64,000 nucleotides of DNA, taken from NCBI GenBank assembly GCA_963733915.1, contig CAVTEP010000003.1:3757-67756 (forward strand). Direction: 5' to 3'. Below, piece by piece: positions 6,312 through 60,037 of this stretch (position 1 is its first letter; every line of letters begins with the position of its first letter). The notes beneath the pieces are model-generated. The model was not told the origin of the DNA and ran no database searches. It worked only from the letters and a program-made list of their open reading frames with translations. Made by a program: the position numbers and the translations under genes. The DNA is from Candidatus Sulfomarinibacteraceae bacterium (GTDB taxonomy: Bacteria > Acidobacteriota > Thermoanaerobaculia > Thermoanaerobaculales > Sulfomarinibacteraceae).

Positions 6312-6476
6312 GAGTTCTTGAGTTTTGAGTTTTGAGCTTTGAGTTTTGAGTTCCCGACCATCCTCCCCTACCGAAATCAGAGGGAGGGCGGGGGAATTCC
6401 GAATTCCAAATTCCGAATTCCAAATTCCTAATTCCTAATTCCTACATTCCTAATTTCTCATTCCTAGTTCGAATTG
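6312..6476. repeat. tandem-unit element E1: (GAGTTTT)x5-6, C/G-box core, (AATTCCN)x9-10
   Basis: 6312-6352 gagttcttgagttttgagttttgagctttgagttttgagtt; core 6353-6394 cctcccct..agggagggcggggg; 6395-6476 aattccgaattccaaattccgaattccaaattcctaattcctaattcct...; the two arms are not complementary to each other. Confidence 0.85.
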
Positions 6477-6489
6477 CCTGCTATCCTGC

Positions 6490-8418
6490 GTGGCCATGAT
6501 CGCGATTACCGACCTCAGCAAGGCCTACGGCGCCCAGACCCTCTTTGACGAGGTCAACCTCCAGCTCAACCCAGGCTGTCGCTATGGGCTGGTCGGCGCC
6601 AACGGCTCCGGCAAGAGCACCATCTTGAGGATCATCGCCGGCACCGAGGAGCCGAGCGGCGGCGCCGTCTCACTCCCAAAGCGCCTCCGCGTCGGCGTCC
6701 TCGAGCAGGATCATTTCCGCCTCGAGGACACTCCGATCCTCGATGTGACGATGATGGGCCACCAAGAGTTGTGGCGAGCGCTGGCGGAAAAGGACCGCAT
6801 CCTCGAGGCCTCGGCGGAGCACTTTGACGGCGAGCGCTACGCCGAGGTCGAGGACCTCGTTGTCAGTCTCGACGGTTACAGCTTCGAGGCTCGCGCCGGT
6901 GAGATCCTCGAGGGACTCGGCATCCCGAGCGAACACCACCGACGGCCGCTGGCGACCCTCTCCGGCGGTTTCAAGCTGCGCGTTCTCCTCGCCCAGGTGC
7001 TGGCCGCGGACCCCGGCTGCCTGCTCCTCGACGAACCCACCAACCACCTCGACATTCTGTCCATCAGGTGGCTCGAGAAGTTTCTCGCAACCTATCGCGG
7101 TTGCGCTCTCGTCGTCTCCCACGACCACCGATTCCTCGACAACGTCTGCACCCACATCCTCGATATCGACTACGAGACGGTCACGCCCTACACCGGCAAC
7201 TACACGGACTTCACCGCCGCCAAGGTGGCGAATCGTGAACGCAAGGAGGGCGAGATCGCGCGCCAGGAAAAGAAAATCGCCGAACATCGGGCGTTTGCCG
7301 ACCGCTTTCGCGCCAAGGCGACCAAAGCGCGCCAGGCGCAGAGCAAGCTCAAGCAGATCGACCGCATCGTCATCGAGAACCTTCCCAGATCGTCACGCCG
7401 CTACCCGGTATTCCGATTCCGCCAGCGCCGCCCGAGCGGCAAGGAAGCGCTGCGCTTGAAGGGCATCAGCAAGTCATTCGGCGACAACAAGGTGCTCTCC
7501 GACGTCGGGCTTCGGGTCCGGCGCGGCGACCGTCTCGCCATCATCGGACCCAACGGGATCGGCAAGTCGACCCTGCTCAAAATCGCGGTCGGAGACCTGC
7601 CGCCCGACGCCGGCGAGGTTCGTTGGGGCCATGAGGTCCGCGCCGGTTACTTCGCCCAGGACCACCGGCAGGCGTTCAAGGGAAGCGACGCCACCGTCGA
7701 GAGCTGGCTCGGGGCGGCCTGCGGAGGCGAAAGCATTGGCGCGGTCCGCAATCGACTCGCTCAGGTGCTGTTTTCAGGCGACGAAGTCGAGAAGCGGCTC
7801 TCCAGCCTGTCCGGCGGCGAAGCGGCGCGGCTGATATTCGCAAAGCTCGCGGTCGACCAGCCAAACGTCCTGGTCCTTGACGAGCCGACCAACCATCTCG
7901 ATCTCGAGGCCATCGAGGCCCTGGTTGCCGCCATCGACGCGTTTGACGGAACGCTGATATTCGTCTCCCATGACCGGTGGTTCGTTTCCAAGCTCGCGAC
8001 TCGCGTGCTCGAAATCACCAAAGACGGGATCAACGACTACCCGGGAACATACGACGACTACCTGGCGAGCTGCGGCGACGACCACCTCGACGCCGACGCC
8101 GTGCTGCTGCGGGTCAAACGGGAGCGCAAGGCCAAGGCGTCCACCCGGCCAACCACTGAGAGTGCCCCCGACCGCGCCGAAATCAGGCGTCGCAAGGAGC
8201 TTTCGCTGCGGCGGGATGTGGTGACCGCCGCCGTCGAAAGCGCCGAGACGAGGATCGAGGAGATCGACCAGGCGTTCTGCGCGCCCGGTTTCTTCGACGA
8301 GACCGCGGAGTCAAAGATCCGCTCGATGCAGCAGGAGCGGGACAAGCTCGCCATCGACCTCGAAAAACTCATCGCCGAGTGGGAGCAGATCGAGGCAACC
8401 CTTGAATTCGAGTGTTGA
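6490..8418 (+). CDS. ABC-F family ATPase (two ABC domains plus C-terminal coiled coil; YheS/Uup-like)
   Basis: ORF 6490..8418; GANGSGKST, LSGGFKLR, LLLDEPTNHLD, GPNGIGKST, LSGGEAAR, LVLDEPTNHLD; start GTG 6490 or ATG 6496. Confidence 0.9.
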   Translation: MAMIAITDLSKAYGAQTLFDEVNLQLNPGCRYGLVGANGSGKSTILRIIAGTEEPSGGAVSLPKRLRVGVLEQDHFRLEDTPILDVTMMGHQELWRALAEKDRILEASAEHFDGERYAEVEDLVVSLDGYSFEARAGEILEGLGIPSEHHRRPLATLSGGFKLRVLLAQVLAADPGCLLLDEPTNHLDILSIRWLEKFLATYRGCALVVSHDHRFLDNVCTHILDIDYETVTPYTGNYTDFTAAKVANRERKEGEIARQEKKIAEHRAFADRFRAKATKARQAQSKLKQIDRIVIENLPRSSRRYPVFRFRQRRPSGKEALRLKGISKSFGDNKVLSDVGLRVRRGDRLAIIGPNGIGKSTLLKIAVGDLPPDAGEVRWGHEVRAGYFAQDHRQAFKGSDATVESWLGAACGGESIGAVRNRLAQVLFSGDEVEKRLSSLSGGEAARLIFAKLAVDQPNVLVLDEPTNHLDLEAIEALVAAIDAFDGTLIFVSHDRWFVSKLATRVLEITKDGINDYPGTYDDYLASCGDDHLDADAVLLRVKRERKAKASTRPTTESAPDRAEIRRRKELSLRRDVVTAAVESAETRIEEIDQAFCAPGFFDETAESKIRSMQQERDKLAIDLEKLIAEWEQIEATLEFEC

Positions 8419-8546
8419 GTTTTGAGTGTTGAGTTTTGAGTGTTGAGTTCTGAGTTGTCCCCACCCACCCTGATCGTCCCGAGAACGGCGGAAACCCCCG
8501 AAAAACCTCCGCAACTCAAAACTGAAAACTCAAAACTCAAAACTGA
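8410..8546. repeat. tandem-unit hairpin element E2: (GAGTKTT)x7, C-rich core, (AACTSAA)x5
   Basis: 8410-8458 gagtgttgagttttgagtgttgagttttgagtgttgagttctgagttgt overlaps the ABC-F stop codon (8416-8418); core starts ccccacccaccc; 8513-8546 aactcaaaactgaaaactcaaaactcaaaactga is the reverse complement family. Confidence 0.85.
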
Positions 8547-8555
8547 CGCCGATTC

Positions 8556-9818
8556 CTATCGGCGTCTCACCGCGTGCATGGTGAAGCCGTCACCATCGAG
8601 GTGGGGCAGGATTCGGACCCCTCCGGCAGACGTCGGGATCCACGGCACGCCTGCGGGCAGGGCCGGCTCCAGGCTTTCGATCCGGAAACCCGGTGGGAGC
8701 TCGGACACGACGCCCTCGTTCTCCTCGGGCTCCACCGAGCAGGTCGCGTAGAGGAGCGCTCCGGCCGGCGCAAGGAGGTCGAGACCGCTTCCGAGCAGCC
8801 GCCGCTGCAGCTTCGCCATCTCGCTCACTGACTCCGAACGCAGCCGCCACTTGATCTCCGGGTGGCGCCGGAGAGTCCCGGTTCCGGTGCACGGCGCGTC
8901 AATCATGACGAGGTCCCACGCGCCTGAGGGAAATGGTGGGGCCGTCGCGTCGGCAGCTACGACCTCACACCCGCCCGCTCTTGCGAGCGTCCGGCGCATG
9001 AGACACACCCTGCCGAGGCTCAGGTCAGACGCCACCACCCGCTCCCAGGCGCCGAGTCTCGCCATCAGCGCCGATTTTCCACCCGGAGCGGCGCACAGAT
9101 CGACCAGCCTGGCGCTCGGAGCGGCGATTTTCCGCGCCACCTGCGCGGCCAGCTGCGAGCTCGGGTCCTGGGCGTAGGCGGCACCGGACTTGACCGATCG
9201 AATGAGGCGTGGAGTATCCGCCGGCGCCGACCAGGCCCCGGGACACCATGGGTGAGCCTGCAAGTCGACGCCGTCGTCGACCAACTCGGACCGCGCGCTC
9301 TCGTCGAAAAACCACACCCAGGTACCGGCGGGTTCCTGGGCCGCCGACATCGCCGACTCAGCGCCTTCGGCGCCGAAGTGGTCGGCCCAGCGGCGATACA
9401 GCCACTCGGGATGAGCGAGCCGAACATCAATCGTGGAATCGGTGAGCGCCTCGCGCCAGCCTCCGGTCGCCTTGCGAAGCACCGCGTTGACCATCCCTGA
9501 CGCCGACGATCGACCCAAACGCCGTACGGTGCGGACTGCCGTGTCCGTCGCCAGGGCCGGCGGCAATCCCAGCCGCATCGTTTCGACAAGCCCGAGCCGC
9601 AGCGCCGCCCGCACCTCGGCGTCCAGTCCCTCGAGTTCTCGTCGGCACAGCGGCTCCAGCACGGCATCCAAGGCCCGCAGCCAGCGCAGAGTTTCGAGGA
9701 CGCGCACGCGAGCCGCCGGCGCCCCACCTCCGGACAACAGCCTCGACGCGAAGGCGCCGTCCTCGACGCGCATGAGCATGCGCGCCGCGGTGATCCGATC
9801 AGCCGAAAGCCTCGCCAC
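8556..9818 (-). CDS. rsmB: 16S rRNA (cytosine967-C5)-methyltransferase
   Basis: ORF 8556..9818; NusB-like N-domain, DLCAAPGGKS, IDAPCTGTGTLRRHPE, YATCSVEPEENE; downstream of fmt as usual. Confidence 0.85.
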   Translation of the reverse strand: MARLSADRITAARMLMRVEDGAFASRLLSGGGAPAARVRVLETLRWLRALDAVLEPLCRRELEGLDAEVRAALRLGLVETMRLGLPPALATDTAVRTVRRLGRSSASGMVNAVLRKATGGWREALTDSTIDVRLAHPEWLYRRWADHFGAEGAESAMSAAQEPAGTWVWFFDESARSELVDDGVDLQAHPWCPGAWSAPADTPRLIRSVKSGAAYAQDPSSQLAAQVARKIAAPSARLVDLCAAPGGKSALMARLGAWERVVASDLSLGRVCLMRRTLARAGGCEVVAADATAPPFPSGAWDLVMIDAPCTGTGTLRRHPEIKWRLRSESVSEMAKLQRRLLGSGLDLLAPAGALLYATCSVEPEENEGVVSELPPGFRIESLEPALPAGVPWIPTSAGGVRILPHLDGDGFTMHAVRRR

Positions 9819-10737
9819 GGGTCACCCGTTCGCCGATCAGAAAGGCGTCGATGGGCATCCGCTGCCGGCCCTCTCGCTGCACCTCGGTGATCCTGGCTGC
9901 GGTTTTCTTGCCGCAGCGCACCACGATTCCATCCGGCGCGGCCGAAAGCACCGTCCCGGGCGCCTCATTGCCACGCGGCGAAGATCTGACCTCATCGAGG
10001 CCGAAGATCTTCAACCGGCCGCCCCGGAATTTGGTGTAGAGGCCCGGCCACGGAGTGAATCCCCGCAGCCGGTTGACCAGCTGACGGGCCGGCATCGACC
10101 AGTCCATCTTGCCGAAATTGCGCCGCAGCATCGGGGTAGTGTTGGCACCGTCGATGGGTTGCGGTCGTGGCGTCAGCGTGCCGGCCTCGAGCTCGTCCAG
10201 GGTGCGCACGATCAGATCGGCCCCGATACCGGCCAGGCGCGGCCCCAGCTGCTCCGCGGTTTCGCCCGGCTCGATGTCGACCCGTCGCTGTAGCAGGAGG
10301 GGACCGGTGTCCATACCTTCGTCGAGCTGCATCGTGGTCACGCCGGTGGCGCGATCGCCGCAGACCAGAGCCCACTGGATCGGCGACGGCCCGCGATGGC
10401 GCGGCAGCAGGCTCGGATGCAGGTTGACAAACCCGAGGCGCGGAATCGCGAGCAGTTCCTCGGGGATCAGCTTGCCGTAGGCCACAACCACCGCAGCTTC
10501 AACGTCGCTCTCAGCCAGGGTCGAGGCAAGCTCTTCGGACTTGAGGTTCTTGGGCTGCAGGCACTCGATGCCGTTCGCGGCCGCCAGCGCGGCTACCGGG
10601 GGCGTCGAAAGAACCTGATGCCGTCCCATCGGCCGATCCGGACGCGACACCACGAGCACAACCTCGTGGCTGCTGGCTATCAGCCGCTCGAGGGTCGGCA
10701 CGGCAAAGTCCGGGGTTCCGAAAAACGCGACCTTCAT
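9799..10737 (-). CDS. fmt: methionyl-tRNA formyltransferase
   Basis: ORF 9799..10752 trimmed to MKVAFFGTPDFAVPTL; NLHPSLLPRHRGPSPIQWAL. Confidence 0.9.
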   Translation of the reverse strand: MKVAFFGTPDFAVPTLERLIASSHEVVLVVSRPDRPMGRHQVLSTPPVAALAAANGIECLQPKNLKSEELASTLAESDVEAAVVVAYGKLIPEELLAIPRLGFVNLHPSLLPRHRGPSPIQWALVCGDRATGVTTMQLDEGMDTGPLLLQRRVDIEPGETAEQLGPRLAGIGADLIVRTLDELEAGTLTPRPQPIDGANTTPMLRRNFGKMDWSMPARQLVNRLRGFTPWPGLYTKFRGGRLKIFGLDEVRSSPRGNEAPGTVLSAAPDGIVVRCGKKTAARITEVQREGRQRMPIDAFLIGERVTRGEAFG

Positions 10738-10763
10738 CCGCGCAGTGTACAACAGGTCTCGGT

Positions 10764-10804
10764 CTCATTCCGGCCCACCGGCTGCGCCGGTGGGCCGGAA
10801 TGAG
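10764..10804. repeat. perfect 18-bp-stem palindrome in the fmt / radical-SAM divergent region
   Basis: ctcattccggcccaccgg ctgcg ccggtgggccggaatgag; contains the same CCCACC/GGTGGG core as the tandem-unit elements. Confidence 0.7.
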
Positions 10805-10862
10805 AGGTGGAAATATCTGAGAACTCGTATACATTGACTCATCTGATCGGCCGATTCGGAGC

Positions 10863-13864: not shown

Positions 13865-13865
13865 A

Positions 13866-14370
13866 GGCTATGGGGCTATGTGGCTGTGGGGCTATGGGGC
13901 TATGGAATTGACAAGCGGCTTGGCGCCTAGGGTGAGAACGAATCGCGTTTCTGTATGAACGCGGCAAGGGCGGCGGCAGTGCGCCCGTGCAATTCACCGA
14001 GAACCGAAGAAGTCTCGTCGCTCAGGTATCCCAATCTGGACGAAAGCGCAATCAAATACCCCTACTCTCGGAGAGAGCCAAATGCGATATCCAAAAACCG
14101 ATTGAATTCAGTTTCCGTGCGGCGGCCGCATCCCTCCACGAAATTGGGCGCCACAGAAACGGCACTTCGTCGTGCCTGGCTCACCAAGCCGTAAAGTCCC
14201 TCTTTCGGGAAATTGTTCGTCGATTGATAGACCTCAATCACAAGATCATCCGCCAACTGGAAGATCTCGAGTTTCCGGTGGTCCCTCACGATTCTCCCGC
14301 TTTACCTGTTGCGCACACGGATCGGGTCCTTCATAGCCCCATAGCCCCATAGCCTCATAGCCACTTGGCC
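13866..14370. repeat. tandem-unit element E3: (GGCTATGG)x5 and (CCATAGCC)x5 inverted arms enclosing a four-helix-bundle gene
   Basis: 13866-13905 ggctatggggctatgtggctgtggggctatggggctatgg; 14331-14370 tcatagccccatagccccatagcctcatagccacttggcc; fills the gap between the stop codons of two convergent genes (13864 and 14372). Confidence 0.9.
13927..14289 (-). pseudogene. four-helix-bundle protein (23S rRNA intervening-sequence protein family, PF05635/TIGR02436-like) interrupted by one in-frame TAG
   Basis: ORF 14062..14289 MRDHRKLEIFQLADDLVIEVY...SAVSVAPNFVEGCGRRTETEFNRFLDIAFGSLRE ends at TAG 14064-14062; same frame continues GYLIALSSRLGYLSDETSSVLGELHGRTAAALAAFIQKRDSFSP to TAG 13929-13927, total about 120 codons as normal for the family. 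Confidence 0.8.
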
Positions 14371-16387: not shown

Positions 16388-16501
16388 GGCTCCTCCTTCG
16401 AGCTGGGATTGCCAAGCGACGCAGTGCGGCAATCCATCCCGGGGAGTATAGCCAGGAAATTCTGATATTCGGACGACGGCGGAACAGAGTATTTCGGCGG
16501 A

Positions 16502-18892: not shown

Positions 18893-19023
18893 GAAACGTT
18901 AGAACGTTAAAACGTTCAACGTTCCCGCCCACCCCCGAGAGTTGGGTTGCTCATTCTTGTCTCGATATCACGGAACCTTCAAGAGTGGAACGTTCTGACC
19001 TTCAACGTTCTAAGGTTCTAACG
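18893..19023. repeat. tandem-unit element E4: (NAACGTTN) arms with CCCGCCCACCCCC core
   Basis: 18893-18923 gaaacgttagaacgttaaaacgttcaacgtt; C-box 18924-18936; right arm 18972-19023 ggaaccttcaagagtggaacgttctgaccttcaacgttctaaggttctaacg. Confidence 0.8.
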
Positions 19024-19613: not shown

Positions 19614-19620
19614 AAAAGCA

Positions 19621-19694
19621 GAGGGGAAAAGGGGAAGAGGGGAAAAGGGGACCCACCAACCCCTCTTCTCCTTTTCTCCTTTTCTCCTTTTCCC
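19621..19694. repeat. tandem-unit hairpin element E5: (GGGGAARA)x3-4, CCCACCAA, (CTCCTTTT)x4
   Basis: gaggggaaaaggggaagaggggaaaagggga cccaccaa cccctcttctccttttctccttttctccttttccc; begins 7 nt after the stop codon. Confidence 0.85.
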
Positions 19695-19726
19695 TACTCC
19701 ACTGATCACGGTTTACACTGGGACTG

Positions 19727-20749
19727 ATGCGTTTCTCTCCTGAACCGCCCGCAGTCGCCGACCCGCCATCCGCGGGCATCCTGCTTGCCAACCTCGGTTC
19801 GCCGTCAGCCGCGACTGCGGGAGCGGTACGGGCGTTTCTCCGTGAATTCCTCAGGGACCCTCGAGTCGTCGAACTACCGCGTTTCAGGTGGTGGTTGATT
19901 CGCAATTTTTTCATCCTGCCCTTTCGACCGTTTCGAACTGCCCGCGCCTACCGTCGGATCTGGACCGACGACGGCTCGCCGCTCGTGGTCATCAGCCGCC
20001 AGCAGGCGGCCGACCTCGAGTGGGAGATCGGCAGACGAGTTGACCGCCCGCTGCCAGTGTTCGCCGGCATGCGCTACGGCAAACCAACTATCGAGGCCGC
20101 GCTCGGAGTGTTGCGGCGACGCGGCTGTCGCCGGATCCTCGTCCTGCCGACCTTCCCCCAGTACTCTGCGACGACGACCGCTCCGGTCTTCGACGAGGTA
20201 GCGCGAGAGTTGTCGACCTGGCGACGGGTGCCCGAACTGAGAACAATCACCGAATACCACGACCACCCCAGCTACATCGGCGCCCTCGCCTCCAGTCTTC
20301 TCGACCAGTGGCGTGCCGGCGGCAAACCGCGAAAACTGCTGATCAGCTTCCACGGACTGCCCGTTCGCTATGCAGAGGCCGGCGACCCCTACCCCGATCA
20401 CTGTCGAAGAACTGTGACCGCCCTCGCCGGCAGGCTCGATCTCGAGTCCAAAAACATCGTCATCGGCTTCCAATCCAGATTTGGCCGTGAGCCGTGGGTC
20501 GGGCCGGACACCGCGGACCTGCTCCGGAAATGGGGTCGCGAGCACCTCGACAAGCTGGACGTGATCTGCCCGGGCTTTGCAGCCGACTGTCTCGAAACCC
20601 TCGAGGAAATCGATATTGCGGGCCGTAAGATCTTCAGCAAGGCCGGTGGCGGGAAATTCCGTTACGTTCCGGCACTCAACCGACGACCGGACCACATCGC
20701 AGCTCTCGCCGAGATCGCGATCGAGCACCTCGGCGGGTGGATTGTTTAG
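19727..20749 (+). CDS. hemH: ferrochelatase
   Basis: ORF 19727..20749; GILLANLGSP, FLREFLRDPRVVELP, LPTFPQYSATTT, SFHGLP, FQSRFG. Confidence 0.9.
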   Translation: MRFSPEPPAVADPPSAGILLANLGSPSAATAGAVRAFLREFLRDPRVVELPRFRWWLIRNFFILPFRPFRTARAYRRIWTDDGSPLVVISRQQAADLEWEIGRRVDRPLPVFAGMRYGKPTIEAALGVLRRRGCRRILVLPTFPQYSATTTAPVFDEVARELSTWRRVPELRTITEYHDHPSYIGALASSLLDQWRAGGKPRKLLISFHGLPVRYAEAGDPYPDHCRRTVTALAGRLDLESKNIVIGFQSRFGREPWVGPDTADLLRKWGREHLDKLDVICPGFAADCLETLEEIDIAGRKIFSKAGGGKFRYVPALNRRPDHIAALAEIAIEHLGGWIV

Positions 20750-23885: not shown

Positions 23886-24008
23886 ACGATTCAACGTTAA
23901 TACGTTAAAACGTTCCCACCCCTCCTCCCCCGAGATCCTCGGCCATCGACAGGGTTGGGCGGGCGAAACGTTCTAACGTTAAACGTTCCAACATTCTAAC
24001 GATTCAAA
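23884..24008. repeat. tandem-unit hairpin element E7: AACGTT-type arms, C-box, G-box; bounded by 10-nt direct repeat
   Basis: 23884-23914 gaacgattcaacgttaatacgttaaaacgtt; C-box 23915-23931 cccacccctcctccccc; G-box 23952-23965 gggttgggcgggcg; right arm 23966-24008; aacgattcaa at 23885-23894 and 23998-24007; left end overlaps TGA 23883-23885. Confidence 0.85.
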
Positions 24009-26533: not shown

Positions 26534-26669
26534 CAACCGTTTGAACGTTGCAACATTAGAACGTTAGAACGTTAGAACGTTCCTAATCTCCCCCAGGGTG
26601 TACATCGAGAATTGACTGGGGTGGATGGACGAAACGTTTTAACGTTGAACGTTCCAACGTGTAACGTCG
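26534..26669. repeat. tandem-unit hairpin element E8: AACGTT-type arms around ctcccccag...ctggggtgg core
   Basis: 26534-26583 caaccgtttgaacgttgcaacattagaacgttagaacgttagaacgttcc; right arm 26631-26669 gaaacgttttaacgttgaacgttccaacgtgtaacgtcg; ends 5 nt before the stop of the convergent gene. Confidence 0.85.
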
Positions 26670-31143: not shown

Positions 31144-31189
31144 CAAATTTCGGCCGGGCTGAGGCGGCCGACAGCCCGGCCGAAATTTG
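31144..31189. repeat. perfect 18-nt inverted repeat with 10-nt spacer in divergent promoter region
   Basis: caaatttcggccgggctg aggcggccga cagcccggccgaaatttg between the exporter operon and the acyl-CoA dehydrogenase gene. Confidence 0.7.
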
Positions 31190-32463: not shown

Positions 32464-32646
32464 AATAGGAATTAGGAATGCCCCACCCGTTAGAAGGCGT
32501 GAGGGGAGCGTAATTCTCAATCCCGATTCACCGCCCTTCCTCCGTTGGGAGGGCGGGTGGAAAAATCCAAAATTGAAATTGAGAACTGAGAATTCGATGC
32601 AATGGGTGGGCGGGATTCCTAATTCCTAATTCCTAATGCGAATTCG
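32463..32646. repeat. nested tandem-unit element E9 (outer GGAATTAGG/CCTAATTCC arms, inner AATTCTCA-type arms, two C-box/G-box pairs)
   Basis: outer arm 32463-32480, C-box ccccaccc 32481-32488, inner C-box 32530-32543, loop gtt, inner G-box gggagggcgggtgg 32547-32560, outer G-box gggtgggcggg 32604-32614, outer arm attcctaattcctaattcctaatgc 32615-32639; starts in the TAG stop 32461-32463. Confidence 0.85.
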
Positions 32647-32649
32647 ATG

Positions 32650-35530: not shown

Positions 35531-35617
35531 GATATGAGTTCTTGCCCCCCGCCCCGCAGGATTTCAGGTTCGTGCTCGGGTGGGCGGGGGAGGAACTCAA
35601 AACCAAGAACTCAAACC
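35529..35617. repeat. tandem-unit hairpin element E10 (GAGTTCTTG / CAAGAACTC arms, C-box, G-box)
   Basis: 35529-35544 gagatatgagttcttg (overlaps TGA 35528-35530); ccccccgccccg 35545-35556; gggtgggcggggg 35578-35590; aggaactcaaaaccaagaactcaaacc 35591-35617. Confidence 0.8.
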
Positions 35618-35687: not shown

Positions 35688-36648
35688 ATGACCTGGAACT
35701 ACTCGAAAAAAACCACCGATCTCTTCATGGATGCGGTGCAGGGCAGGCCCGGCACCCACCTGGGAGAGATCGAGGACGCCGACGGATTCGGCGAGCACGG
35801 GTCGATCGCGTGCGGCGACGCCCTCCGTTTCACCTTCAAGGTCGAATCGCCACCCCACGGACCCGAAGCAGGACGCATCACCGAGGCCCGCTACCTCACC
35901 TTCGGCTGCACCTCGGCCATCGCCGCATCCGAGGCCCTGTGCGCGATCATCGAGGAGGGCGACTACACCCCGATCGAGGCCCTGAAGATCACCAACCAGG
36001 ACATCGTCAACTATCTCGAGGGACTGCCGCAGGCAGAAGATCCACTGCTCGGTGATGGGCGCCGAGGCGCTCGAGGCGGCGGTCTTCAACTGGGCCCAGA
36101 AGCGCGGCGTCGACCTCTCCGAGCTCGGCATCGACATCCGCCGCGACGAGCAGGAGGAGGGGCGGCTGGTCTGCACCTGCTTCGGTCTCACCGAGCCCTA
36201 CATCGAGCGCAAGATCAAGGAGCTCGAGCTGACATCGATCGCGGAGATCACCAACGCCATCAAGGCCGGCGGCGCCTGCATGTCCTGCCACCACACGCCC
36301 GGCGGCCTCCAGGACCTGCTCAACGAGGTCTGGGGCAAGCAGCCGACCGCGTTCAAGGAATTGCCGGTGCTGCCGTTGGCCCGCGAACACAAGGTGCAGC
36401 CGCCGCGGGAGATGTCGCCCTTCAAGTTCGCCAAGCAGGTGGAGCACGTCCTCGACGAGCACGCCCGGCCTCACCTCGCCCGCGACGGAGGGAATATCGA
36501 GATCGTCGACATCAAGGACCGTGTGGTCTACGTCCAACTCAAGGGCGCGTGTTCCGACTGCATGGGATCGACCAACACGGTCAAGATGCTGGTGGAGCAG
36601 GCGCTCAAGGACCACGTGGACGAACAGATCCGGGTCATCCAGGTCTAG
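35688..36648 (+). pseudogene. nifU: full-length NifU (IscU-like N domain, BFD-like 2Fe-2S domain, Nfu C domain) with +1 frameshift (or assembly error)
   Basis: N part in ORF 35670..36773 (GSIACGDALRF, FGCTSAIAASEAL, GLPQ), remainder in ORF 36052..36648; own reading of that frame gives QKIHCSVMGAEALEAAV; removing one G at 36032-36033 joins them; CTCFGLTE..GGACMSCH, GACSDCMGS. Confidence 0.85.
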
Positions 36649-36653: not shown

Positions 36654-36690
36654 GTTTCCCGCGGTCGCCCGCCGGGCGACCGCGGGAAAC
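36654..36690 (+). promoter_or_regulatory. 37-nt perfect palindrome between nifU and nifS (attenuator or processing hairpin candidate)
   Basis: gtttcccgcggtcgcccg c cgggcgaccgcgggaaac; no U-run after it; AGGAGG and GTG start of nifS follow. Confidence 0.6.
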
Positions 36691-41006: not shown

Positions 41007-41052
41007 CCGATTCTGCCGGTCGAGCCCTTTTGGGCACGACCGGCAGAATCGG
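41007..41052. repeat. perfect 16-nt inverted repeat 15 nt upstream of the M14 peptidase start
   Basis: ccgattctgccggtcg agcccttttgggca cgaccggcagaatcgg; spacer itself contains gccc tttt gggc. Confidence 0.7.
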
Positions 41053-44675: not shown

Positions 44676-44854
44676 GCCCACCCTACCACCCAGGCTATGA
44701 GGCTATGAGGCTATGAGGGGCCAGCCACCTATCCATTGGCTGCAAGCGAGAGGTGTGCCCGATAGTCCCATAGCCAGGCCGCGACTCGTCACGTCGAACC
44801 CCCGGGGCGAAAACGGAAGCGGCCGATCATAGCCCTATAGCCCCAAAGCCCCTG
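44676..44854. repeat. tandem-unit element E11 (C-box, (GGCTATGA)x3 ... (YCATAGCC)x3)
   Basis: gcccaccctaccaccc 44676-44691; ggctatgaggctatgaggctatgagggg 44693-44720; about 105-nt centre; tcatagccctatagccccaaagcccctg 44827-44854 abutting the stop of the next ORF. Confidence 0.8.
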
Positions 44855-49542: not shown

Positions 49543-49673
49543 CCCACCACCCGTCTGGATAGAGGGCACCGGGCACGGAGTTCAGGTCCCACCCGCCCAG
49601 CATCTCTTGGTCCTGCACCCTCTGTCCTGCGCCCTGTACCCTGCATCCTGTATCCGGGTGTATCGGTGGGCGG
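49543..49673. repeat. tandem-unit hairpin element E13 filling the whole stop-to-stop gap
   Basis: cccaccacccg 49543-49553; left arm ggatagagggcaccgggcacggagttcaggtcc 49557-49589; cacccgccc 49590-49598; right arm ggtcctgcaccctctgtcctgcgccctgtaccctgcatcctgtatcc 49609-49655; cggtgggcgg 49664-49673. Confidence 0.8.
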
Positions 49674-54414: not shown

Positions 54415-54665
54415 GCAATTCTCACCGCGTCGCTGGGTGATACCTGAACACGCGGGCGTTGGAAAACGGCCAGCTCATAACCAGACCCGCAACTCTACTC
54501 AGGGGCCGAAGCGAAGAGTGCGAGACGTCGTGCGATGTGGCGATTTCGCGGTGTGAGCGAGGGAGGCTTACTCGGAGCGTACGTCACACCGAGCGAACAC
54601 AAGAAAGCGCCGCAGCGTGCGGCGTACCGCGCTCTGCAGCCGGCCCCTGAGGAAAGATGCGGGTC

Positions 54666-54693: not shown

Positions 54694-54756
54694 GATATTC
54701 GAATCGGGAGGGCTGGTTCCGCCAAAACGGTAGGATCAAAACGATGGGATGATCTT

Positions 54757-54784
54757 GGCTGGCCTTAAAAGGTTGGCCTATTTT
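54757..54784 (+). terminator. weak intrinsic terminator candidate (plus strand)
   Basis: ggctggcc ttaaaa ggttggcc tatttt; stem needs three G-U pairs. Confidence 0.35.
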
Positions 54785-54960
54785 GAGGTAGGTCTCAAGG
54801 TGGTCAGCTTCCCCAGGCCCCTCCCTTTCTCAATTGATGGCTCATCGTAGCATGTGCTTGTCTCGTTGTCTAGCGTTAATCTCGACAATACATGGATTTG
54901 TGCCGATGAGTTCAGAAAGGTCACCCGACGTCGCCGAAAGGCCAGGGGCCCAGAACGCGT

Positions 54961-55887
54961 TCATTTCGTCCGGATCGCGGACAATTCGATCGTGACCTCG
55001 CGGGCCTCTCCCGGTTCGAGCTCGACGGTTCGGCTCAGGTTGGCATAACCGTCGGCGCGCACCTCGATCGAGTGGGTTCCCGCCGAGGTTGCAAGAGGGC
55101 CTTCCATCCGGTTCAGCTCTCTACCGGTGGCGACAAACACCCCGTCGAGCAAAACCGAAGCCTGCTCGGGGCTCACCCGAATCCGTAGCGAGGCGCTCCG
55201 CTTCTCAGGAACCGCCACGCTGACTGCGTTGTCCGATCCCAGGTCGGGTCTCAGGCTCGGATTCGGTGCTCCCCGAGCCGGCTTGGCGGGCGGGATCAAT
55301 GCCCCCCCGACGGCAAGTGGGCTGAAGACCCTCTGAAACGGCTTGCCCTTGCCGTAGGCCTCTTGGGTCTGGTTTTCGGCCTTGCCCTTTGCTCGATCGA
55401 GCCTGTGTTTCAGGTCAAAGCGGCAGCCGGCCGCCGCCTCGAGATCGATGGCAATGGATTGATAGCCCTTCAGCCTGAGCTCCAGATTGTAGCTGCCGGG
55501 CTCCAGGTACAGGTAATCGGGCTTGCCATCGAGGTACCTTGCGCGGCCGACAAACCGATCGTCGAGATAGACCTCGGCGTCCTTGGGGCGGACATCGATG
55601 GCAACCACCGCCAAATCGGGTCCTGGCGGCGTCTCCTCGGAAGGCGGCGGACCGGGCCAGTATGTTCCCACTGGAATGCAGGGCAGGAGTACGGTGCTCG
55701 GGTCGGACGCGATGTCAGAGTGGACAGGGTTCGCAGCGCCCGCTGCAGCTGCGGCTTGTTGGCCGGGTGCCACCGTCGGCGCGCCGGTCCCGGGCGACTG
55801 AGCCGCGGCAGCGCCTACCGCTCCCAGGGTCACGCTCAAGGCAAGGGCGACGACGCCTCGTCTCGGGAACCAACGGTTCGTCCCCAT
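54961..55887 (-). CDS. secreted PEGA-domain protein (two PEGA repeats)
   Basis: ORF 54961..55944 trimmed to MGTNRWFPRRGVVALALSV behind GGGAGGTG; DVRPKDAEVYLDDRFVG..YNLELRLKGYQS and RVSPEQASVLLDGVFV..HSIEVRADGYAN. Confidence 0.75.
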   Translation of the reverse strand: MGTNRWFPRRGVVALALSVTLGAVGAAAAQSPGTGAPTVAPGQQAAAAAGAANPVHSDIASDPSTVLLPCIPVGTYWPGPPPSEETPPGPDLAVVAIDVRPKDAEVYLDDRFVGRARYLDGKPDYLYLEPGSYNLELRLKGYQSIAIDLEAAAGCRFDLKHRLDRAKGKAENQTQEAYGKGKPFQRVFSPLAVGGALIPPAKPARGAPNPSLRPDLGSDNAVSVAVPEKRSASLRIRVSPEQASVLLDGVFVATGRELNRMEGPLATSAGTHSIEVRADGYANLSRTVELEPGEAREVTIELSAIRTK

Positions 55888-56813
55888 GATCCACCTCCCG
55901 TTGACCGGGAATGCAATCCCTCTGCCAGGCCCTCCAGATAGCAAGAATCCAGAAAACCCCGGTAAATGCTGGGGGGAATGACACCGTCGACCTTCTCGCC
56001 GAGCTCGACCGCGAGCCCGAGCAGCGCGCGCCGCAAGCGTCGGAGGGGATTTCGCCGGAGGGCACGGCTGACCCCAAGGAAGTTTTCGAGTTGCGGGTGG
56101 ATACCGGCAAAGATCGCGGCCGAGATCCCGGATGTCCTCTGTCGGCTACAGAACGTCCGCGGCCGAATACAGTGACGGTGCAGGGTCCTGGCGCGCGGTT
56201 GGTAACGAAGGGTGAGGCCGTTGGCGGCGGCCCGGTACGAAAATTCGATGTCTTCCCACGCCGCCGCCGGAAAATCCTCACGAAATCCCCCCAATTCGAG
56301 GAGAACACGGCGTGGCACCGACACATTCGATGTGTAGAAAAAATTGAAAGGAACGGCACGTGGGTCGTCGATCAACTGGTAGCCGAACTGTGCGCCTTGC
56401 TCGTTGATGAAGCGCAGGAATGGGCTTCGGCGATCGTTGACAAACGAGGTGTATCCGATCACCGCCAGAAGAGTCGTTCCGCCAAAGAGCCGATGTTCCT
56501 CGAGGTGGCTGGCCAGCCAGCCCGGCTGCGGTTCGGTGTCGTCACCGAGAAACAACACGAGGTCGCCTGAAGCGGCCTCGACTCCCTGATTTCGTGCCCG
56601 CGCCGGTCCGGAGTTGGCCTGGCGAAGCACCGTCAGGCCAGGCGGCCCGGTCTGCGAGCCGAGCCACTCCCAGGTGCCGTCAGACGAACCATCGTCAACC
56701 ACCACCGTCTCGAGTTCGGTTCCATTTGGACACGCTTGAGATCGAACCGCCAACAGCACCCGCTGCAAATCCTGCAGCCGGTTGTAGGTCGGGATGACCA
56801 GGCTCGCCCGCAT
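55836..56813 (-). CDS. family 2 glycosyltransferase
   Basis: ORF 55836..56813; SLVIPTYNR, VVVDDGSSDGT, FLGDD; its 3' end overlaps the PEGA gene start by 52 nt. Confidence 0.85.
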   Translation of the reverse strand: MRASLVIPTYNRLQDLQRVLLAVRSQACPNGTELETVVVDDGSSDGTWEWLGSQTGPPGLTVLRQANSGPARARNQGVEAASGDLVLFLGDDTEPQPGWLASHLEEHRLFGGTTLLAVIGYTSFVNDRRSPFLRFINEQGAQFGYQLIDDPRAVPFNFFYTSNVSVPRRVLLELGGFREDFPAAAWEDIEFSYRAAANGLTLRYQPRARTLHRHCIRPRTFCSRQRTSGISAAIFAGIHPQLENFLGVSRALRRNPLRRLRRALLGLAVELGEKVDGVIPPSIYRGFLDSCYLEGLAEGLHSRSTGGGSWGRTVGSRDEASSPLP

Positions 56814-57970
56814 CAGACCACCAAACGCGGTATCGCTGGCGACAGGCGGGCCAAGAGCTCATAGTTGATCGTGTCACTCAGTGACGCCAGCTCCTCGACC
56901 GAGATGTGTTCATCCCCTTGCCGACCGATCAGAACCGCCTCGTCGCCAATGCTGACATCAGGAATGTCGGTAATATCCGCCATCAGGATATTCATACAAA
57001 CCCGACCCACGACGGGCGCCGAACGACCGTTGATGAGAACCCGCGCCCGGTTACCGAGTACTCGCACATATCCGTCGGCGTATCCGACCGGAATCACCGC
57101 CAATAGACTGTCTCTTCGCGCGGTCCATGTCCTGCCGTATCCGACCGAAGCGTTCCTCTCAACGATCTGCAATTGTCCGACAATCGCCTTCCACGAGAGT
57201 ACCGGTCGAAGCTGCACTCTACCGTCCGAATGCTCAAGAGTCCATGACAATCGAGTTTCCCGAGATGGCCAATGCCCGTACATTGAAATACCGACCCGCA
57301 CGAGCGAGAAATCAGTCTCGCGAAACAGCAAAGCCGAGGCCGAGCATGACGCGTGAATGAACGGCGGTAACTCTCCGAGTTCCCGCCGCGCCACGTCGAC
57401 CGCCTCGCGAAATCGATTCATTTGGAGGCGCGCAAAATCATGCTCGATGGTGTCCTCGATATTGGCATAATGCGAGGCAATTCCGACGACTTCTACCGAA
57501 GCCTTCGAAGCGGCCGTAACGACCTTCGGCAATTCGGCAGTCGATACTCCCTGCCGCTTGGTTCCGATATCCACTTTGATGTGCACCGGAAGCGCAACGC
57601 CGGTCTTTTCCCGATATCTTCTCACCCATTCCAGGGATTCCGCCGCGGACACCATCAGATGAACATCGGAATCGAGGCTATGAAAGCCTGACGGCGGCAC
57701 GTAGCCCATGACGAGAATCGGTCCTTCGAGCCCGATCTCGCGGAGTTGACGCGCTTCATCGGCGCTGTGAACCCCGAGCCATGCCGCATGACGCACTGCT
57801 CGCGTCGCGACCTGCGCCAAGCCGTGCCCGTATGCGTTGGCTTTGACCACCGCCAGAAGAGCCGCGTCGGCGTTGATGATCCTCCGGAATAATCCTAAAT
57901 TATGATCTAAAGCATCGCCCTCAATCTCGATCCATTGTGCCGGGCGCGGGTCCGCCATCTCCATCGCCAA
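56813..57970 (-). CDS. alr: alanine racemase
   Basis: ORF 56813..57970; AVVKANAYGHG PLP-lysine motif; GYGRTW; VGRVCMN. Confidence 0.9.
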   Translation of the reverse strand: MAMEMADPRPAQWIEIEGDALDHNLGLFRRIINADAALLAVVKANAYGHGLAQVATRAVRHAAWLGVHSADEARQLREIGLEGPILVMGYVPPSGFHSLDSDVHLMVSAAESLEWVRRYREKTGVALPVHIKVDIGTKRQGVSTAELPKVVTAASKASVEVVGIASHYANIEDTIEHDFARLQMNRFREAVDVARRELGELPPFIHASCSASALLFRETDFSLVRVGISMYGHWPSRETRLSWTLEHSDGRVQLRPVLSWKAIVGQLQIVERNASVGYGRTWTARRDSLLAVIPVGYADGYVRVLGNRARVLINGRSAPVVGRVCMNILMADITDIPDVSIGDEAVLIGRQGDEHISVEELASLSDTINYELLARLSPAIPRLVV

Positions 57971-58264
57971 AGTCTATCGCGGAAAACGCCTTCCCGTCAT
58001 GATCGTAAGAAACGTTTTGTCTGCCTGAATATTGTGGCGAAGTTTCATCGCGACGCTGGAATTCACGTTTGTTCATCGCAGCACTGCAGCCATGGTTCAC
58101 ACGCTCGCCTCTTATGGTTGCGCATTGCATCATGAATATTGTGGTCAGATTTCGCGCTATTTGCTGACTGTAAATGTTCTTTCCAGTCGCGGCGGCGGAC
58201 CAGACTGCTGCACTTTTTGATAAAATGACATTTGATTTATTTCGAGATTTTGCAGAAATTTCCC

Positions 58265-58293
58265 TTGACTCTCGATATTCTAAATCGTATTCT
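58265..58293 (+). promoter_or_regulatory. sigma70-like promoter candidate TTGACT - 17 nt - TATTCT
   Basis: 58265-58270 ttgact, 58288-58293 tattct, followed by GGAGGTG (58309-58315) and ATG 58320. Confidence 0.45.
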
Positions 58294-58319
58294 GACCTTA
58301 GACTCTTTGGAGGTGACCT

Positions 58320-58706
58320 ATGGCGTTCGAGAAGTTCATTCCGCCGCAAACCTCCGGTGTGCGGCCACGGGCCACCATCCGGCCGAGCGGTTTGATCTCA
58401 TTCGATTCGGCTACGGTAGAGGCGTTTGGTCTGAAATCTGCGTCGTACGCGGTGTTGTATTTCGACAAAACGCGAAAAATCGTTGGCGTGCAGATTTCGA
58501 AGAATGCCAACGAAGATGGTTCGTTGAAGCTGTCGCGTAGACGGCGGTCCGTGAGTCTTAAAGCGCCGCAGTTTTTCGACCTCTACGGGCTCTCATTTGA
58601 TGAAGCACAGCGATTCGACGTCGGGCTGGATCCCGATTCCAAAATGCTGACAATCAGCCTGAAATCGGTCCAGCGCCGCCGCGGGCGGCGTCCCAAGACG
58701 ACCTGA
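58320..58706 (+). CDS. orphan hypothetical protein with basic C-terminal tail (QRRRGRRPKTT)
   Basis: ORF 58320..58706; own promoter and strong RBS; sits in an AT-richer islet; no family recognised. Confidence 0.55.
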   Translation: MAFEKFIPPQTSGVRPRATIRPSGLISFDSATVEAFGLKSASYAVLYFDKTRKIVGVQISKNANEDGSLKLSRRRRSVSLKAPQFFDLYGLSFDEAQRFDVGLDPDSKMLTISLKSVQRRRGRRPKTT

Positions 58707-58734
58707 GGAAATTCGATTCTGCGGCTTGGCCGAG

Positions 58735-59532
58735 TCACGGTTTCGGCCAACCGTCACCGACACCGAAAAGAACCCGAAAGCCGGCCGTGGAGCTCAGAGC
58801 GACCTCCTCGACCGGCTTTTTCCATTCCTCTGCCAGGCGGCGACCGATGAGGGGTACGTACGCCGGTTCGTTCTCTCTGCCCCGATGGGGAACCGGAGCA
58901 AGGTACGGGCTATCCGTTTCCACCAGGACGCTTTCGGGTTCGAGCACCGCCACGATCGCGCGGATATTTTCAGAATTCTTGAATGTCACCATTCCTGAAA
59001 TACCGACCCAAAGGCCCATCTCCACCACCTGTCGGGCTGCCTCCACGCCCTCTGTGAAGGAGTGACAAACTCCTCGCAGGCGGCCCTTGCGTTCTTCCAA
59101 CATCGAAATGAGGTCAGGCCACGATTCCCGATTGTGCAGCACGACCGGCAAGTCCATCGCGATCGCGAGATCGAGCTGCCAGGCAAGCGCGGCCAACTGG
59201 TCCTCACGCGGCGAGTTCAGGTAGTGGTAGTCGAGTCCGATCTCGCCCACTGCAACCACGGTCGCCCGCTCGCACGCCTTTTCGATGAGGCGTTTCATCG
59301 ACGCATCGAGCGAGTCGGCCTCGTGGGGATGAACGCCCGCCGCCGCCACGACCCGATTCGGATGATCTTCCGCAAGGCCGAGGGTGAGGTCGATATCGTC
59401 AGGGCCGGTGGCTGGCGTAAGGATTCCGGCGACTCCGGCACCCGCAGCGCGATCCAGGACGCCGGCAACCTCGTGCTCATCGAACATGCTGAGATGGGCG
59501 TGCGAGTCGATCCAGATCATTGTCTCGGTCAT
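58735..59532 (-). CDS. tatD: TatD-family metal-dependent hydrolase (DNase)
   Basis: ORF 58735..59532; WIDSHAHL, GEIGLDYHY, VLHNRE, HSFTEG, ETDSPYL. Confidence 0.9.
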   Translation of the reverse strand: MTETMIWIDSHAHLSMFDEHEVAGVLDRAAGAGVAGILTPATGPDDIDLTLGLAEDHPNRVVAAAGVHPHEADSLDASMKRLIEKACERATVVAVGEIGLDYHYLNSPREDQLAALAWQLDLAIAMDLPVVLHNRESWPDLISMLEERKGRLRGVCHSFTEGVEAARQVVEMGLWVGISGMVTFKNSENIRAIVAVLEPESVLVETDSPYLAPVPHRGRENEPAYVPLIGRRLAEEWKKPVEEVALSSTAGFRVLFGVGDGWPKP

Positions 59533-59598
59533 GACGGGAGTCTACAGCATCGTTAGAACGTTAAAACGTTGAACGTTAGAACGTTTGGCTTATCCGGG

Positions 59599-59695
59599 AT
59601 GGCGAGAAATCGAGGTTCGGAAGGCCCGGTTGGCCCGCATTATTCATGAGGTCTCGTCGCCCTCGCGACGAAACCCGGTGAGATATGCGGTTTAG
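59599..59695 (+). pseudogene. N-terminal stub of a four-helix-bundle (PF05635-like) gene
   Basis: ATG 59599 followed by one extra G, then frame 59600-59695 reads WREIEVRKARLARIIHEVSSPSRRNPVRYAV stop; resembles family N-terminus (x-D/E-L/I-E-V-W-x-K-A-x-x-L-A-x-x-I-Y); stops where the next repeat block begins. Confidence 0.45.
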
Positions 59696-60037
59696 CCGCT
59701 GCCGCTGTCCCTGCCCGGTCCCTACCCGCCGTTGCAACGGATCGGACCACCGGTATCGGAGACGGGTGGTCCCCTTTTCCCCTTTTCTCCTTTTCTCCTT
59801 TCCCCCCCTTCCTCATCAGGGAGGGCGGGTGAAACGTTCGGTTCATCCGGAATTTGATGGGATCGAGTTTTGGAAGTTCCGATCAGCTAACCCAGCGACA
59901 GGAACAGCGACACACCGCAGGGGCAGTGAACAGCGGCCGAGGCAGCGACCGCGGCAGCGACCGGGGCAGTGAGCAGGGGTCGTGACGACGGCATGTTCAA
60001 GCCGGGTCGTTCAGTGCGAGAGGTAGCCGGTGGGCAC

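Follow-up and report, generated by a model that had tools for sequence, protein, structure and literature searches.

We analysed a 64-kb stretch of DNA (the window) and found that it carries a G-box that is real and much too frequent for chance. With a probability of about one half, this box and a C-rich counterpart make up the GC-rich inner part of lineage-specific intergenic foldback elements that serve as hairpins at transcript ends. The host lineage of these elements is uncultured, marine-sediment Acidobacteriota of the Ca. Sulfomarinibacteraceae type (class Thermoanaerobaculia). We infer the transcript-end function from the enrichment of the box, its polarity, a gene-linked strand rule, predicted folds and the retention of hairpin slots among relatives.

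In the window, the exact motif GGGNGGGCGGG matched six times (6382, 32547, 32604, 35578 and 59819 on the plus strand and 18924 on the minus strand), against a mean of 0.81 in dinucleotide shuffles, none of which reached six (0/100). All six matches were intergenic, in a window that is 12.8% intergenic (p ~4e-6), and the looser pattern GGGNGGG was also concentrated in spacers (27 of 62 matches, 7.9 expected; p 2e-9). When one mismatch to GGGNGGGCGGG was tolerated, the enrichment was weak (29 vs 20.4). GGGNGGGCGGG represents the local form of a less strict box, which can be written roughly as (G3-4 N)3 and typically reads GGGKGGGYGG. A preliminary description had listed seven G-box strings and seven C-rich partners, all of which were found in their places; the minus-strand match at 18924 was absent from that list. 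All seven sites do carry a G-box, but not always the exact motif, since 23952 reads GGGTTGGGCGGG and 49664 reads CGGTGGGCGG, so that the box is conserved as a degenerate G-run and not as an 11-mer. The 49588/49664 site is atypical because its boxes are mirror-ordered, not reverse-complementary, and the array lies inside them.

The expectation that the motif adjoins tandem arrays above background was confirmed. Each exact copy is located at the inner end of an array of 7-8 nt units or close to it. A TRF-called array lies 0-2 nt from the box only at 6382, 18924, 23952 and 32604; boxes 32547 and 35578 have short or degenerate repeats as neighbours, and box 59819 lies 12 nt past the array end with the C-partner between. 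TRF called 25 AT-richer arrays of 6-9 nt units in the window, all in spacers. Many hairpins lack a box, among them the repeat-armed ones at 19620-19694, 62374-62455, 13866-14362 and 44692-44852, and the box is therefore not the defining site of the family.

Table 1. Features of the intergenic elements in the window.
Feature	Position	Strand	Basis
Left (GAGTTTT)n array, element 1	6312..6352	+	TRF, sequence
C-rich partner cccgaccatcctcccct	6353..6369	+	pairs with G-box in predicted fold
G-box GGGAGGGCGGGGG	6382..6394	+	exact match
Right (AATTCCK)n array	6395..6470	+	TRF
Left (GAGTKTT)n array, overlaps ABC-F stop codon	8402..8456	+	TRF
Solo C-box CCCCACCCACCC, unpaired in loop; minus strand GGGTGGGTGGG	8459..8470	+	
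Right (AACTCAA)n array	8513..8544	+	TRF
Perfect 19-bp palindrome ctcattccGGCCCACCGGC/GCCGGTGGGCCggaatgag, divergent spacer, possible minimal element	10764..10804	.	-46 kcal/mol
Left (AACGTTNN)n array	18894..18923	+	TRF
C-box CCCGCCCACCCCC, exact G-box on minus strand; right-hand partner degenerate	18924..18936	-	
Right arm, degenerate AACGTTCT units	18987..19023	+	
Left (AACGTTAA)n array, begins 8 nt past stop codon	23893..23914	+	TRF
C-box cccacccctcctccccc	23915..23931	+	sequence
G-box variant GGGTTGGGCGGGCG	23952..23965	+	one-mismatch scan, sequence
Right (AAACGTTC)n array	23966..24008	+	TRF
AACGTT-armed hairpin, weak boxes ctcccccaggg (26588-26598) and ctggggtggatgg (26616-26628)	26538..26667	+	
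Outer left (AGGAATT)n array, overlaps acyl-CoA dehydrogenase stop codon	32457..32479	+	
Outer C-box GCCCCACCC	32480..32488	+	
Nested inner element: arm aattctcaatcccgattca, C-box CCGCCCTTCCTCC (32531-32543), loop gtt; 3' half: G-box GGGAGGGCGGGTGG (32547-32560), arm aaaaatccaaaattgaaattgagaactgagaatt	32512..32594	+	
Outer G-box GGGTGGGCGGG	32604..32614	+	exact match
Outer right (ATTCCTA)n array, 13 nt from hemerythrin stop codon	32615..32637	+	TRF
Element between TerB-like gene and nifU: arm tgagttcttg, C-box CCCCCCGCCCCG (35545-35556); 3' half: G-box GGGTGGGCGGGGG (35578-35590), arm aggaactcaaaaccaagaactcaaa	35535..35615	+	fold z -3.6
Atypical site: CCCACCCGCCC ... (CCTGYAY)n ... CGGTGGGCGG	49588..49673	+	TRF, fold
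(CCCCTTTT/CTCCTTTT)n array, C-box CCCCCCCTTCCTC (59802-59814), loop, G-box AGGGAGGGCGGGTG (59818-59831)	59771..59831	+	
G-box variant GACGGGTGGGTGG, then aaaatccgaattccgaaatt	60627..60659	+	

The basic module is a 5'-G-box directly followed by a G-poor tandem array of 7-8 nt units, and two modules back to back give the order G/T-rich array, C-box, loop (median ~18 nt, range 5-90 nt), G-box and A/C-rich array. Across some 860 kb of related DNA, the box was found at the inner array end in a ratio of 47:14 (p 2.7e-5); 3' array flanks were C-rich in 29 cases vs G-rich in 5, and 5' flanks G-rich in 18 vs C-rich in 9. As an independent replicate, 167 arrays were drawn from metagenome loci outside the seed match, and they showed the same polarity (68:17, p 2e-8). 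Where an array lies 3' of a G-box, it had C>G in 93 cases vs 16 and A>T in 70 vs 42. The arm units belong to a small repertoire (GAGTTTT, AAATCCG, AATTCCK and AACGTTNN), with AAAACTC (28/167) and AAATCCG (22/167) commonest in the replicate; the box is shared by elements with different arm types, as had been claimed, but these arms are not unrelated. Modules also follow one another in the same direction (L012:11948-12067), many metagenome loci having a G-box with an AAATCCG array and then a G-box with a CATTCCG array, and elements may be nested (window 32464-32649; L009:7262-7437). In viral and phage contigs (AAATCCG)n arrays occur mostly without the box, and in unrelated viral contigs they stand directly upstream of starts.

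A C-rich partner accompanies the box at all seven sites listed earlier but not generally, being present within 140 nt of ~58% of boxes against a background of 30-33%. The remaining ~40% are solo, for example at 8459-8470 in the window and at L056:11966. Own and cross pairs of boxes had the same pairing energy (-18.6 vs -18.6 kcal/mol; permutation p 0.44), with no element-specific covariation. The palindrome at 10764-10804 fits its proposed status as a minimal version: it keeps the C-first order (CCCACC...GGTGGG) with one ATTCC-type unit per arm, and the orthologous site in L003 holds an array-bearing form.

By spacer type, seven elements of the window are convergent, eight co-directional and few divergent, the hairpins in divergent spacers being those at 10764 and 31144. 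Elements start 0-46 nt past stop codons, often in or adjoining the stop codon, and extend to the -10-like box of the next gene; the array at 6395-6470 ends ~10 nt before the -10-like TGCTATCCT and ~25 nt before the ABC-F start codon. Of the 15 arrays lying no more than 50 nt after a stop, 13 had G>C on the coding strand (the exceptions were one tie and the far arm of one hairpin), and 3/3 of those adjoining starts had C>G on it. The genes beside the elements have housekeeping functions and lie in both orientations (ABC-F, fmt, rsmB, nifU/S and acyl-CoA dehydrogenase).

In the predicted folds, the C-box pairs with the G-box as the GC-rich apex of long stems (z -2.7 to -7.5), which makes a nucleation or register-setting role for the box physically plausible. 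The antisense strand folds about as well as the sense strand, so that a role in RNA only is not indicated. In orthologous spacers of relatives at 92-95% protein identity, the hairpin was always present and the arm units differed; behind the same acyl-CoA dehydrogenase gene the units were AGGAATT, CGTTAGAA or GAGTTCTCAATTTTGAATT, and on both sides of ABC-F in 16 genomes the hairpin slot was likewise kept with different units. Element 1 (6312-6470) is chimeric, its relatives retaining an AACTCAA right arm and a second G-box. The box recurs in related genomes, with exact GGGTGGGCGGG at L082:2366 beside GAGTTTT/AACTCAA arms, and the arms of the nested element at 32512-32594 are similar to those of an element in the same spacer of L083. 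As judged from these comparisons, a hairpin kept while its units are replaced points to a putative structural role behind genes, as a transcript-end or insulator hairpin.

Hairpins at transcript ends could form barriers against 3' exonucleases; alternatively, they might act as non-canonical stops or insulate transcription units from one another. In elements that have both boxes, the pair would provide the stable, register-fixing nucleus of a stem that otherwise consists of slippery low-GC repeats. Against this explanation, a plain clamp leaves the constant C-box-first order unaccounted for, and the many boxes without a C-rich partner, the absence of element-specific partner complementarity and the hairpins in two divergent spacers also speak.

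The strict polarity in two data sets could also mean that the box is a sequence-specific recognition site, the oriented module being bound or processed by a protein and the hairpin secondary; candidates would include a nucleoid or insulator protein, a recombinase or transposase-like enzyme, and an RNA-binding factor. This is a tentative alternative, which we consider rather unlikely. Solo boxes unpaired in loops, same-direction tandem modules and nested elements argue for it, as do the same box beside different arms and across species and the interchangeability of boxes without partner-specific covariation; the few dominant unit families fit recognition or dispersal better than random slippage. 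However, the box is degenerate, its distances to promoters and to the partner vary widely (loop 5-90 nt), and the 64-kb window and the fragments of relatives showed neither a candidate protein nor a transposase or target-site duplication. Orthologous slots were always occupied, not present in some and absent in others, and the viral (AAATCCG)n arrays mostly lack the box.

It is less probable still that the elements are mutational footprints, in which a G-rich block or GC hairpin stalls DNA synthesis, the nascent end slips and repeats arise 3' of the G-box, after which template switching across the palindrome turns one arm into a copy of the other. The arrays do adjoin the box on the 3' side of the G strand, box-proximal units are homogeneous (AAATCCG x4), and distal units are of an older type common to several species (ATTCCT, AATTAGG). 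Close relatives swap arm units quickly while boxes persist, and new elements lie within the loops of old ones (window 32512-32594). The proximal-distal gradient is confounded, however, since distal units are constrained by overlapping stop codons and promoter regions. The same few unit families recur in many genomes, even in box-less phage contigs, array copy number was unchanged between two near-identical strains (99.9%), and the gene-linked strand rule is not predicted. In its broader form, to which we give an equally low probability, the oriented G-box and G-poor array would be the trace left by a directional process, primed at the box, in which intergenic repeats are made and renewed by polymerase stalling and slippage or by an enzyme nucleating at the box. 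If that were true, spacers behind genes would hold hairpins that renew themselves, changing in sequence within a genus but keeping their structure, and since Xanthomonas and Nostoc obey the same gene-linked strand rule, this would be a general, undescribed principle of bacterial spacer evolution.

A G-quadruplex at the G-box (with an i-motif on the C-box) regulating transcription or translation, as proposed for the Xanthomonas and Nostoc heptamers, is very improbable. G3 runs with single-nucleotide spacing are the most quadruplex-prone pattern, GGGAGGGCGGG and GGGTGGGCGGG are present in published quadruplex-forming sequences (aptamer and TRF2 5'-UTR papers), and 29 of the 47 boxes contain four G runs of two or more. 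Yet four G3 tracts (tracts of at least 3 G, loops of 1-7 nt) were found in 2/47 boxes, most having two or three; the G-poor flanking arrays cannot provide the missing tract, and the complementary C-box in cis, where present, would compete. Least credible of all are ordinary Rho-independent terminators with the G-box as the 3' half of the stem: the GC-rich core stems do lie directly behind stop codons in mainly convergent and co-directional spacers, but the flank polarity is reversed (T-rich before the C-box, A-rich after the G-box), G-boxes are followed by AAATCC, AATTCC, AACTCA or AACGTT with no U-tract, and a terminator scan gave no excess (15 vs 14.6 and 18 vs 10.8 in shuffles) and, at the elements, nothing but a small minus-strand hairpin at 8545-8566, so classical intrinsic termination is excluded.

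Several bacterial phyla are rich in intergenic heptamer repeats, whose role has been obscure for decades; in this lineage they take an unusually clear form. Its combination of a fixed-polarity box, a gene-direction strand rule and slots that outlast the replacement of their sequence between close relatives sets structure apart from sequence, and testable predictions follow on transcript ends, exonuclease barriers and pausing of replication or transcription. The elements may help to explain how transcription units are limited in GC-rich bacteria that lack classical terminators and apparently use leaderless mRNAs. In practice, elements of this kind interrupt assemblies and mislead gene callers in metagenome-assembled genomes.

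Several known systems resemble these elements in part. MITEs and foldback transposons have terminal inverted repeats, target-site duplications and presence/absence polymorphism; by reading, no flanking direct repeats were seen here, and orthologous spacers were always occupied. Nesting (32512-32594) is the sole transposon-like trait of the elements. The attC sites of integrons are imperfect palindromes with R/L boxes (GTTRRRY) behind promoterless cassettes next to an integrase, and the housekeeping genes in both orientations found here do not match them. An Rfam search gave 0 matches at gathering score, and at E up to 1 only sub-threshold miRNA-precursor-like matches on plain hairpins. Bidirectional intrinsic terminators also place a GC-rich stem-loop with complementary A/T-rich flanks between convergent genes, but the flanks here are U-rich 5' and A-rich 3' on both strands, and with this reversed order the U-tract needed for release is missing.

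The REP/BIME elements of enterobacteria are abundant imperfect palindromes found at the 3' ends of genes and within operons, mosaic and sometimes nested, and have been proposed as mRNA 3'-end stabilisers, insulators and gyrase sites; REPs are 20-40 bp long, with a fixed consensus and a GTAG/CGTC tag, and are linked to RAYT transposases (PMC3733652). As in REP/BIME, the hairpin slot is kept here while the sequence changes, but the arms are variable tandem arrays of 20-110 nt, and no GTAG/CGTC tag was seen at the element ends by reading. The TAACTGA direct repeats of marine Beggiatoaceae and the cyanobacterial STRR heptamers are spacer arrays of patchy phylogenetic spread that often end a few nucleotides before a start codon; they are almost always direct (one inverted case in 170 sets), with no adjacent GC box (PMC4679880). 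The heptamer arrays in spacers are similar here, whereas the inverted arms and the GC box differ.

Among the closest counterparts described are the intergenic heptameric simple-sequence repeats of Xanthomonas, (GGGAATC)n, and Nostoc, (GGGGAYT)n, whose G-version stands on the coding strand 0-50 bp after or overlapping a stop codon and whose C-version stands on it just upstream of starts (Rehm et al. 2015, PMC4692102). They form 70-75 convergent (inverted) pairs per genome that are able to form stem-loops, and are under-represented between divergent genes (PMC4692102). As there, tandem 7-nt units are over-represented in the spacers of a GC-rich genome, and the strand rule holds in the window. 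In Xanthomonas and Nostoc, however, a G3-4 tract lies inside every unit, four units are preferred (the basis of the quadruplex idea), and no central GC box has been described, whereas the units here (GAGTTTT, AAATCCG, AATTCCT and AACGTTNN) are G-poor on that strand and do not each carry such a tract; the G tracts are gathered in one compact inner-end box of polarity opposite to the arms. Intergenic heptamers and the strand rule were already known; the new feature is the compact G/C box that caps the array at its inner end with constant polarity.

The seven G-box strings and seven C-rich partners (C-boxes) listed in a preliminary description of the window were all found where it had placed them, and the G-box proved to lie above background. 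The exact GGGNGGGCGGG is present in 6 copies against 0.81 expected, a number reached by no shuffle. The sixth copy, on the minus strand at 18924, is the C-box of another element, that is, of another intergenic hairpin whose arms are 7-8 nt tandem arrays. None of the six lies within a gene (p about 4e-6), and 27 of the 62 GGGNGGG occurrences in the window are likewise intergenic (7.9 expected). A chance or compositional artefact is ruled out by the shuffles together with this intergenic restriction. When one mismatch was allowed, only a weak excess of GGGNGGGCGGG was detected, which makes the exact 11-mer a sharp, local version of a looser motif. The sites described at 23952 and 49664 are inexact, and the boxes of the latter are arranged atypically (Table).

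The G+C content of the window is 64%, and a self-trained codon model called ~58 genes, with 12.8% of the DNA intergenic. Pfam and annotated relatives backed the calls for a sigma factor, rubrerythrin, ferrochelatase, MacB/ABC/RND, acyl-CoA dehydrogenase, hemerythrin, nifU/nifS, fmt, and rsmB. The ABC-F ATPase shares no more than 80% identity with proteins of sediment genomes that are labelled Ca. Sulfomarinibacteraceae, Thermoanaerobaculia or Acidobacteriota, and the acyl-CoA dehydrogenase is up to 95% identical to metagenome proteins. The split nifU and the frameshift in a PF05635 gene (Table) suggest assembly indel errors rather than pseudogenes.

Many 7-8 nt arrays were detected by TRF; almost all of them lie in spacers, frequently as inverted pairs. 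The usual order of an element is left array, C-box, loop, G-box, right array, and the predicted folds are long stems with the C-box paired to the G-box at the apex. G-box/array modules were also found solo, in one-direction tandem, and nested. Element 1 is a chimera: two related loci, L001 and L023, retain a complete GAGTTTT/AACTCAA hairpin, behind which come a second G-box and an AAATCCG/AATTCC array, and the stretch between their two G-boxes has been lost in the window, so that the arms of element 1 are non-complementary. A small hairpin common to 32531-32560 and 59802-59831 (CCCTTCCTCN4GGGAGGGCGGGTG) had no match in a metagenome scan of its own.

Features of the window and of loci from related genomes and metagenomes (L numbers)
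Feature	Position	Remarks
ABC-F ATPase gene	6490-8418	
nifU	35688-36648	broken across two reading frames at ~36037 (tblastn with L082 NifU)
Element 1	6312-6470	
Nested elements	32464-32649	spacer with a complete element within the loop of another
Atypical box pair	49588-49673	boxes in mirror order, array inside them
Inverted array pairs/units (TRF)		GAGTTTT/AACTCAA; AGGAATT/AATTCCT; AACGTTNN; GGCTATG/CATAGCC; AGGGGAAA/CCTTTTCT; AAGAGTC/CTTGACT
TGCTAYNCT (extended -10-like) box	6476-6498; 19709-19729; 16432-16450 (minus strand); many loci of relatives	
Palindrome CAAATTTCGGCC...GGCCGAAATTTG	31144-31189; L082 ~9911-9954; L083 ~4705-4745	divergent spacer RND adaptor/acyl-CoA dehydrogenase
Similar single hairpins	41007-41052; 36655-36689	
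Dyad-symmetric region	54486-54663	long, array-free, in a 546-nt convergent spacer; sub-threshold hairpin match on both strands
Insert between inverted arrays	13866-14362	(GGCTATGG)5 and (CATAGCCC)4 around 426 bp; PF05635 gene on minus strand, split by apparent frameshift near 14060
Intact PF05635 gene	L013 18657-19013	
Related ~80-nt segments	59690-59775; 60560-60640	GCCGCTGCCGC...GTCCCTGMCC...CAACGGAT...GACGGGTGG, each then an array; second segment with 13-nt repeats (CCGCCGTCCCTGA)
ORF, 35 codons	59887-59994 (minus strand)	signal-peptide-like, without Pfam match
Dispersed repeats GGCACCTCCGCCGCACGCG (often after GGATGCCAGGCAC) and GAAACCGCAGATCACGCAGATAGA	L004, L006, L008, L010, L044, many of L085-L164	beside boxes, either orientation

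The order of box and array was analyzed in the 14 nt beside AT-richer arrays of the window and 17 family loci (349 kb). On the 3' side, C-rich flanks outnumbered G-rich ones 29 to 5, and on the 5' side G-rich flanks outnumbered C-rich ones 18 to 9, at background frequencies of 1.8-3.3% (p 2.7e-5 for polarity). Scanning metagenomes for one variant of the junction (GGGNGGAAAATCCGAAATCCG) yielded at least 120 stretches; after arrays less than 350 nt from the seed were left out, 167 independent arrays remained, and the polarity agreed in 68 and was opposite in 17 (p 2e-8). The unit is therefore a 5'-G-box followed by an array, and since a C-first hairpin is C-first on either strand, the hairpin consists of two such modules set back to back. 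Arrays after a G-box are G-poor (mean G content 10%), with C exceeding G in 93 cases versus 16. The oriented junctions carry a degenerate box (…GGGGTGGGYGGR|AA…), and it is in this form that the G-box can be regarded as the motif shared by the elements, as the preliminary description had proposed; the strict 11-mer cannot. No G-box-array junction was detected in viral contigs, 25 of which (L205-L229, G+C 0.33-0.68) contain (AAATCCG)3-4 arrays mostly lacking the box, indicating that the box association is lineage-specific. In several cases the viral arrays lie directly 5' of a ribosome-binding site or start codon, always with the C-containing version on that strand.

We found that the positions of the elements are kept while their sequences are replaced. 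In 16 related genomes, arrays with different units flank ABC-F on both sides at the same positions, each with a C-box or G-box at its inner end. In several species, the C-box/G-box loop is itself a repeat (CCCACCCTGAGCACTCGGGCGTTT..GTCGGTGGG) that flanks ABC-F on both sides in opposite orientation. The spacer behind acyl-CoA dehydrogenase always holds a strong hairpin in relatives with 92-95% protein identity, with arms of AGGAATT, CGTTAGAA or GAGTTCTCAATTTTGAATT. In other orthologous spacers the pattern is the same, with GC-rich hexamer arrays or plain palindromes in some. More distant Thermoanaerobaculia hold simple GC hairpins or nothing at the acyl-CoA dehydrogenase position. At strain level, L083 and L084, which are 99.9% identical, have identical arrays. 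The persistence of a hairpin whose sequence changes argues for a structural role. The conserved palindrome of the divergent RND adaptor spacer shows compensatory stem changes and could represent an operator or a single-unit form of the repeat-armed hairpin.

Among the spacers with elements in the window, 7 are convergent, 8 co-directional, and few divergent. Elements start 0-46 nt past the stop codon, which in several orthologues falls within the first array unit. Right arms often reach the conserved TGCTAYNCT box, 7-8 nt upstream of ATG; this box suggests extended -10 promoters and widespread leaderless mRNAs in the lineage. The -35/UP region near it is taken up by repeat arrays. The PF05635 gene encodes a 23S rRNA-intervening-sequence protein (four-helix bundle) and occupies the corresponding position in L004 and L006, with TRF arrays on one side in L004 and on both sides in L006. 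Ribosomal RNA intervening sequences are excised at long stems, and the layout of this insert between inverted arrays recalls them.

We favor the reading that the elements are transcript-end or insulator hairpins, which would act as exonuclease barriers or non-canonical stops. The box pair would then provide a stable core that fixes the register of stems otherwise slippery and low in GC. Several results weigh against the pair being purely such a clamp: a C-rich 12-mer lies within the 140 nt upstream of only 58% of boxes (background 30-33%); duplex energy and Watson-Crick matching under permutation revealed no partner-specific covariation, partners matching no better than random, a result that by itself neither proves nor disproves pairing; fold energies of the two strands gave no consistent preference, hence no sense-strand advantage through G-U pairs; and the fixed C-first order is unexplained. 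Two less probable readings of the box are a recognition site, as first proposed, perhaps for a putative factor, and a mutational footprint, with arrays arising beside a G-rich block. A G-quadruplex is a weak candidate, as only 2 of 47 boxes are canonical. Canonical intrinsic termination is excluded by the element flanks, which on either strand are U-rich on the 5' side and A-rich on the 3' side, the reverse of terminator order, and by the lack of enrichment of terminator-like sites. Interpretations as integron attC sites, CRISPR or MITEs were weighed and set aside, and Rfam had no matching family. The G-box feature is real, statistically robust, and structurally defined; its function at transcript ends is putative.

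Literature searches with the motif strings matched only eukaryotic or aptamer quadruplex papers, and no description of the G-box, or of repeats in Sulfomarinibacter or its lineage, was found. Of the arrays within 50 nt after a stop codon, 13 of 15 have more G than C on the coding strand, and all three beside starts have more C than G. The same gene-linked strand rule has been reported (PMC4692102) for the GGGNATC heptamers that are repeated in Xanthomonas and Nostoc, where they likewise form 70-75 convergent pairs per genome. The arrays themselves belong to this known kind of intergenic heptamer repeats; what appears to be new is that a compact G/C box of opposite polarity marks the inner end of the arrays, that the elements are organized as modules, in tandem and nested, and that arms are replaced rapidly in slots that are themselves conserved.
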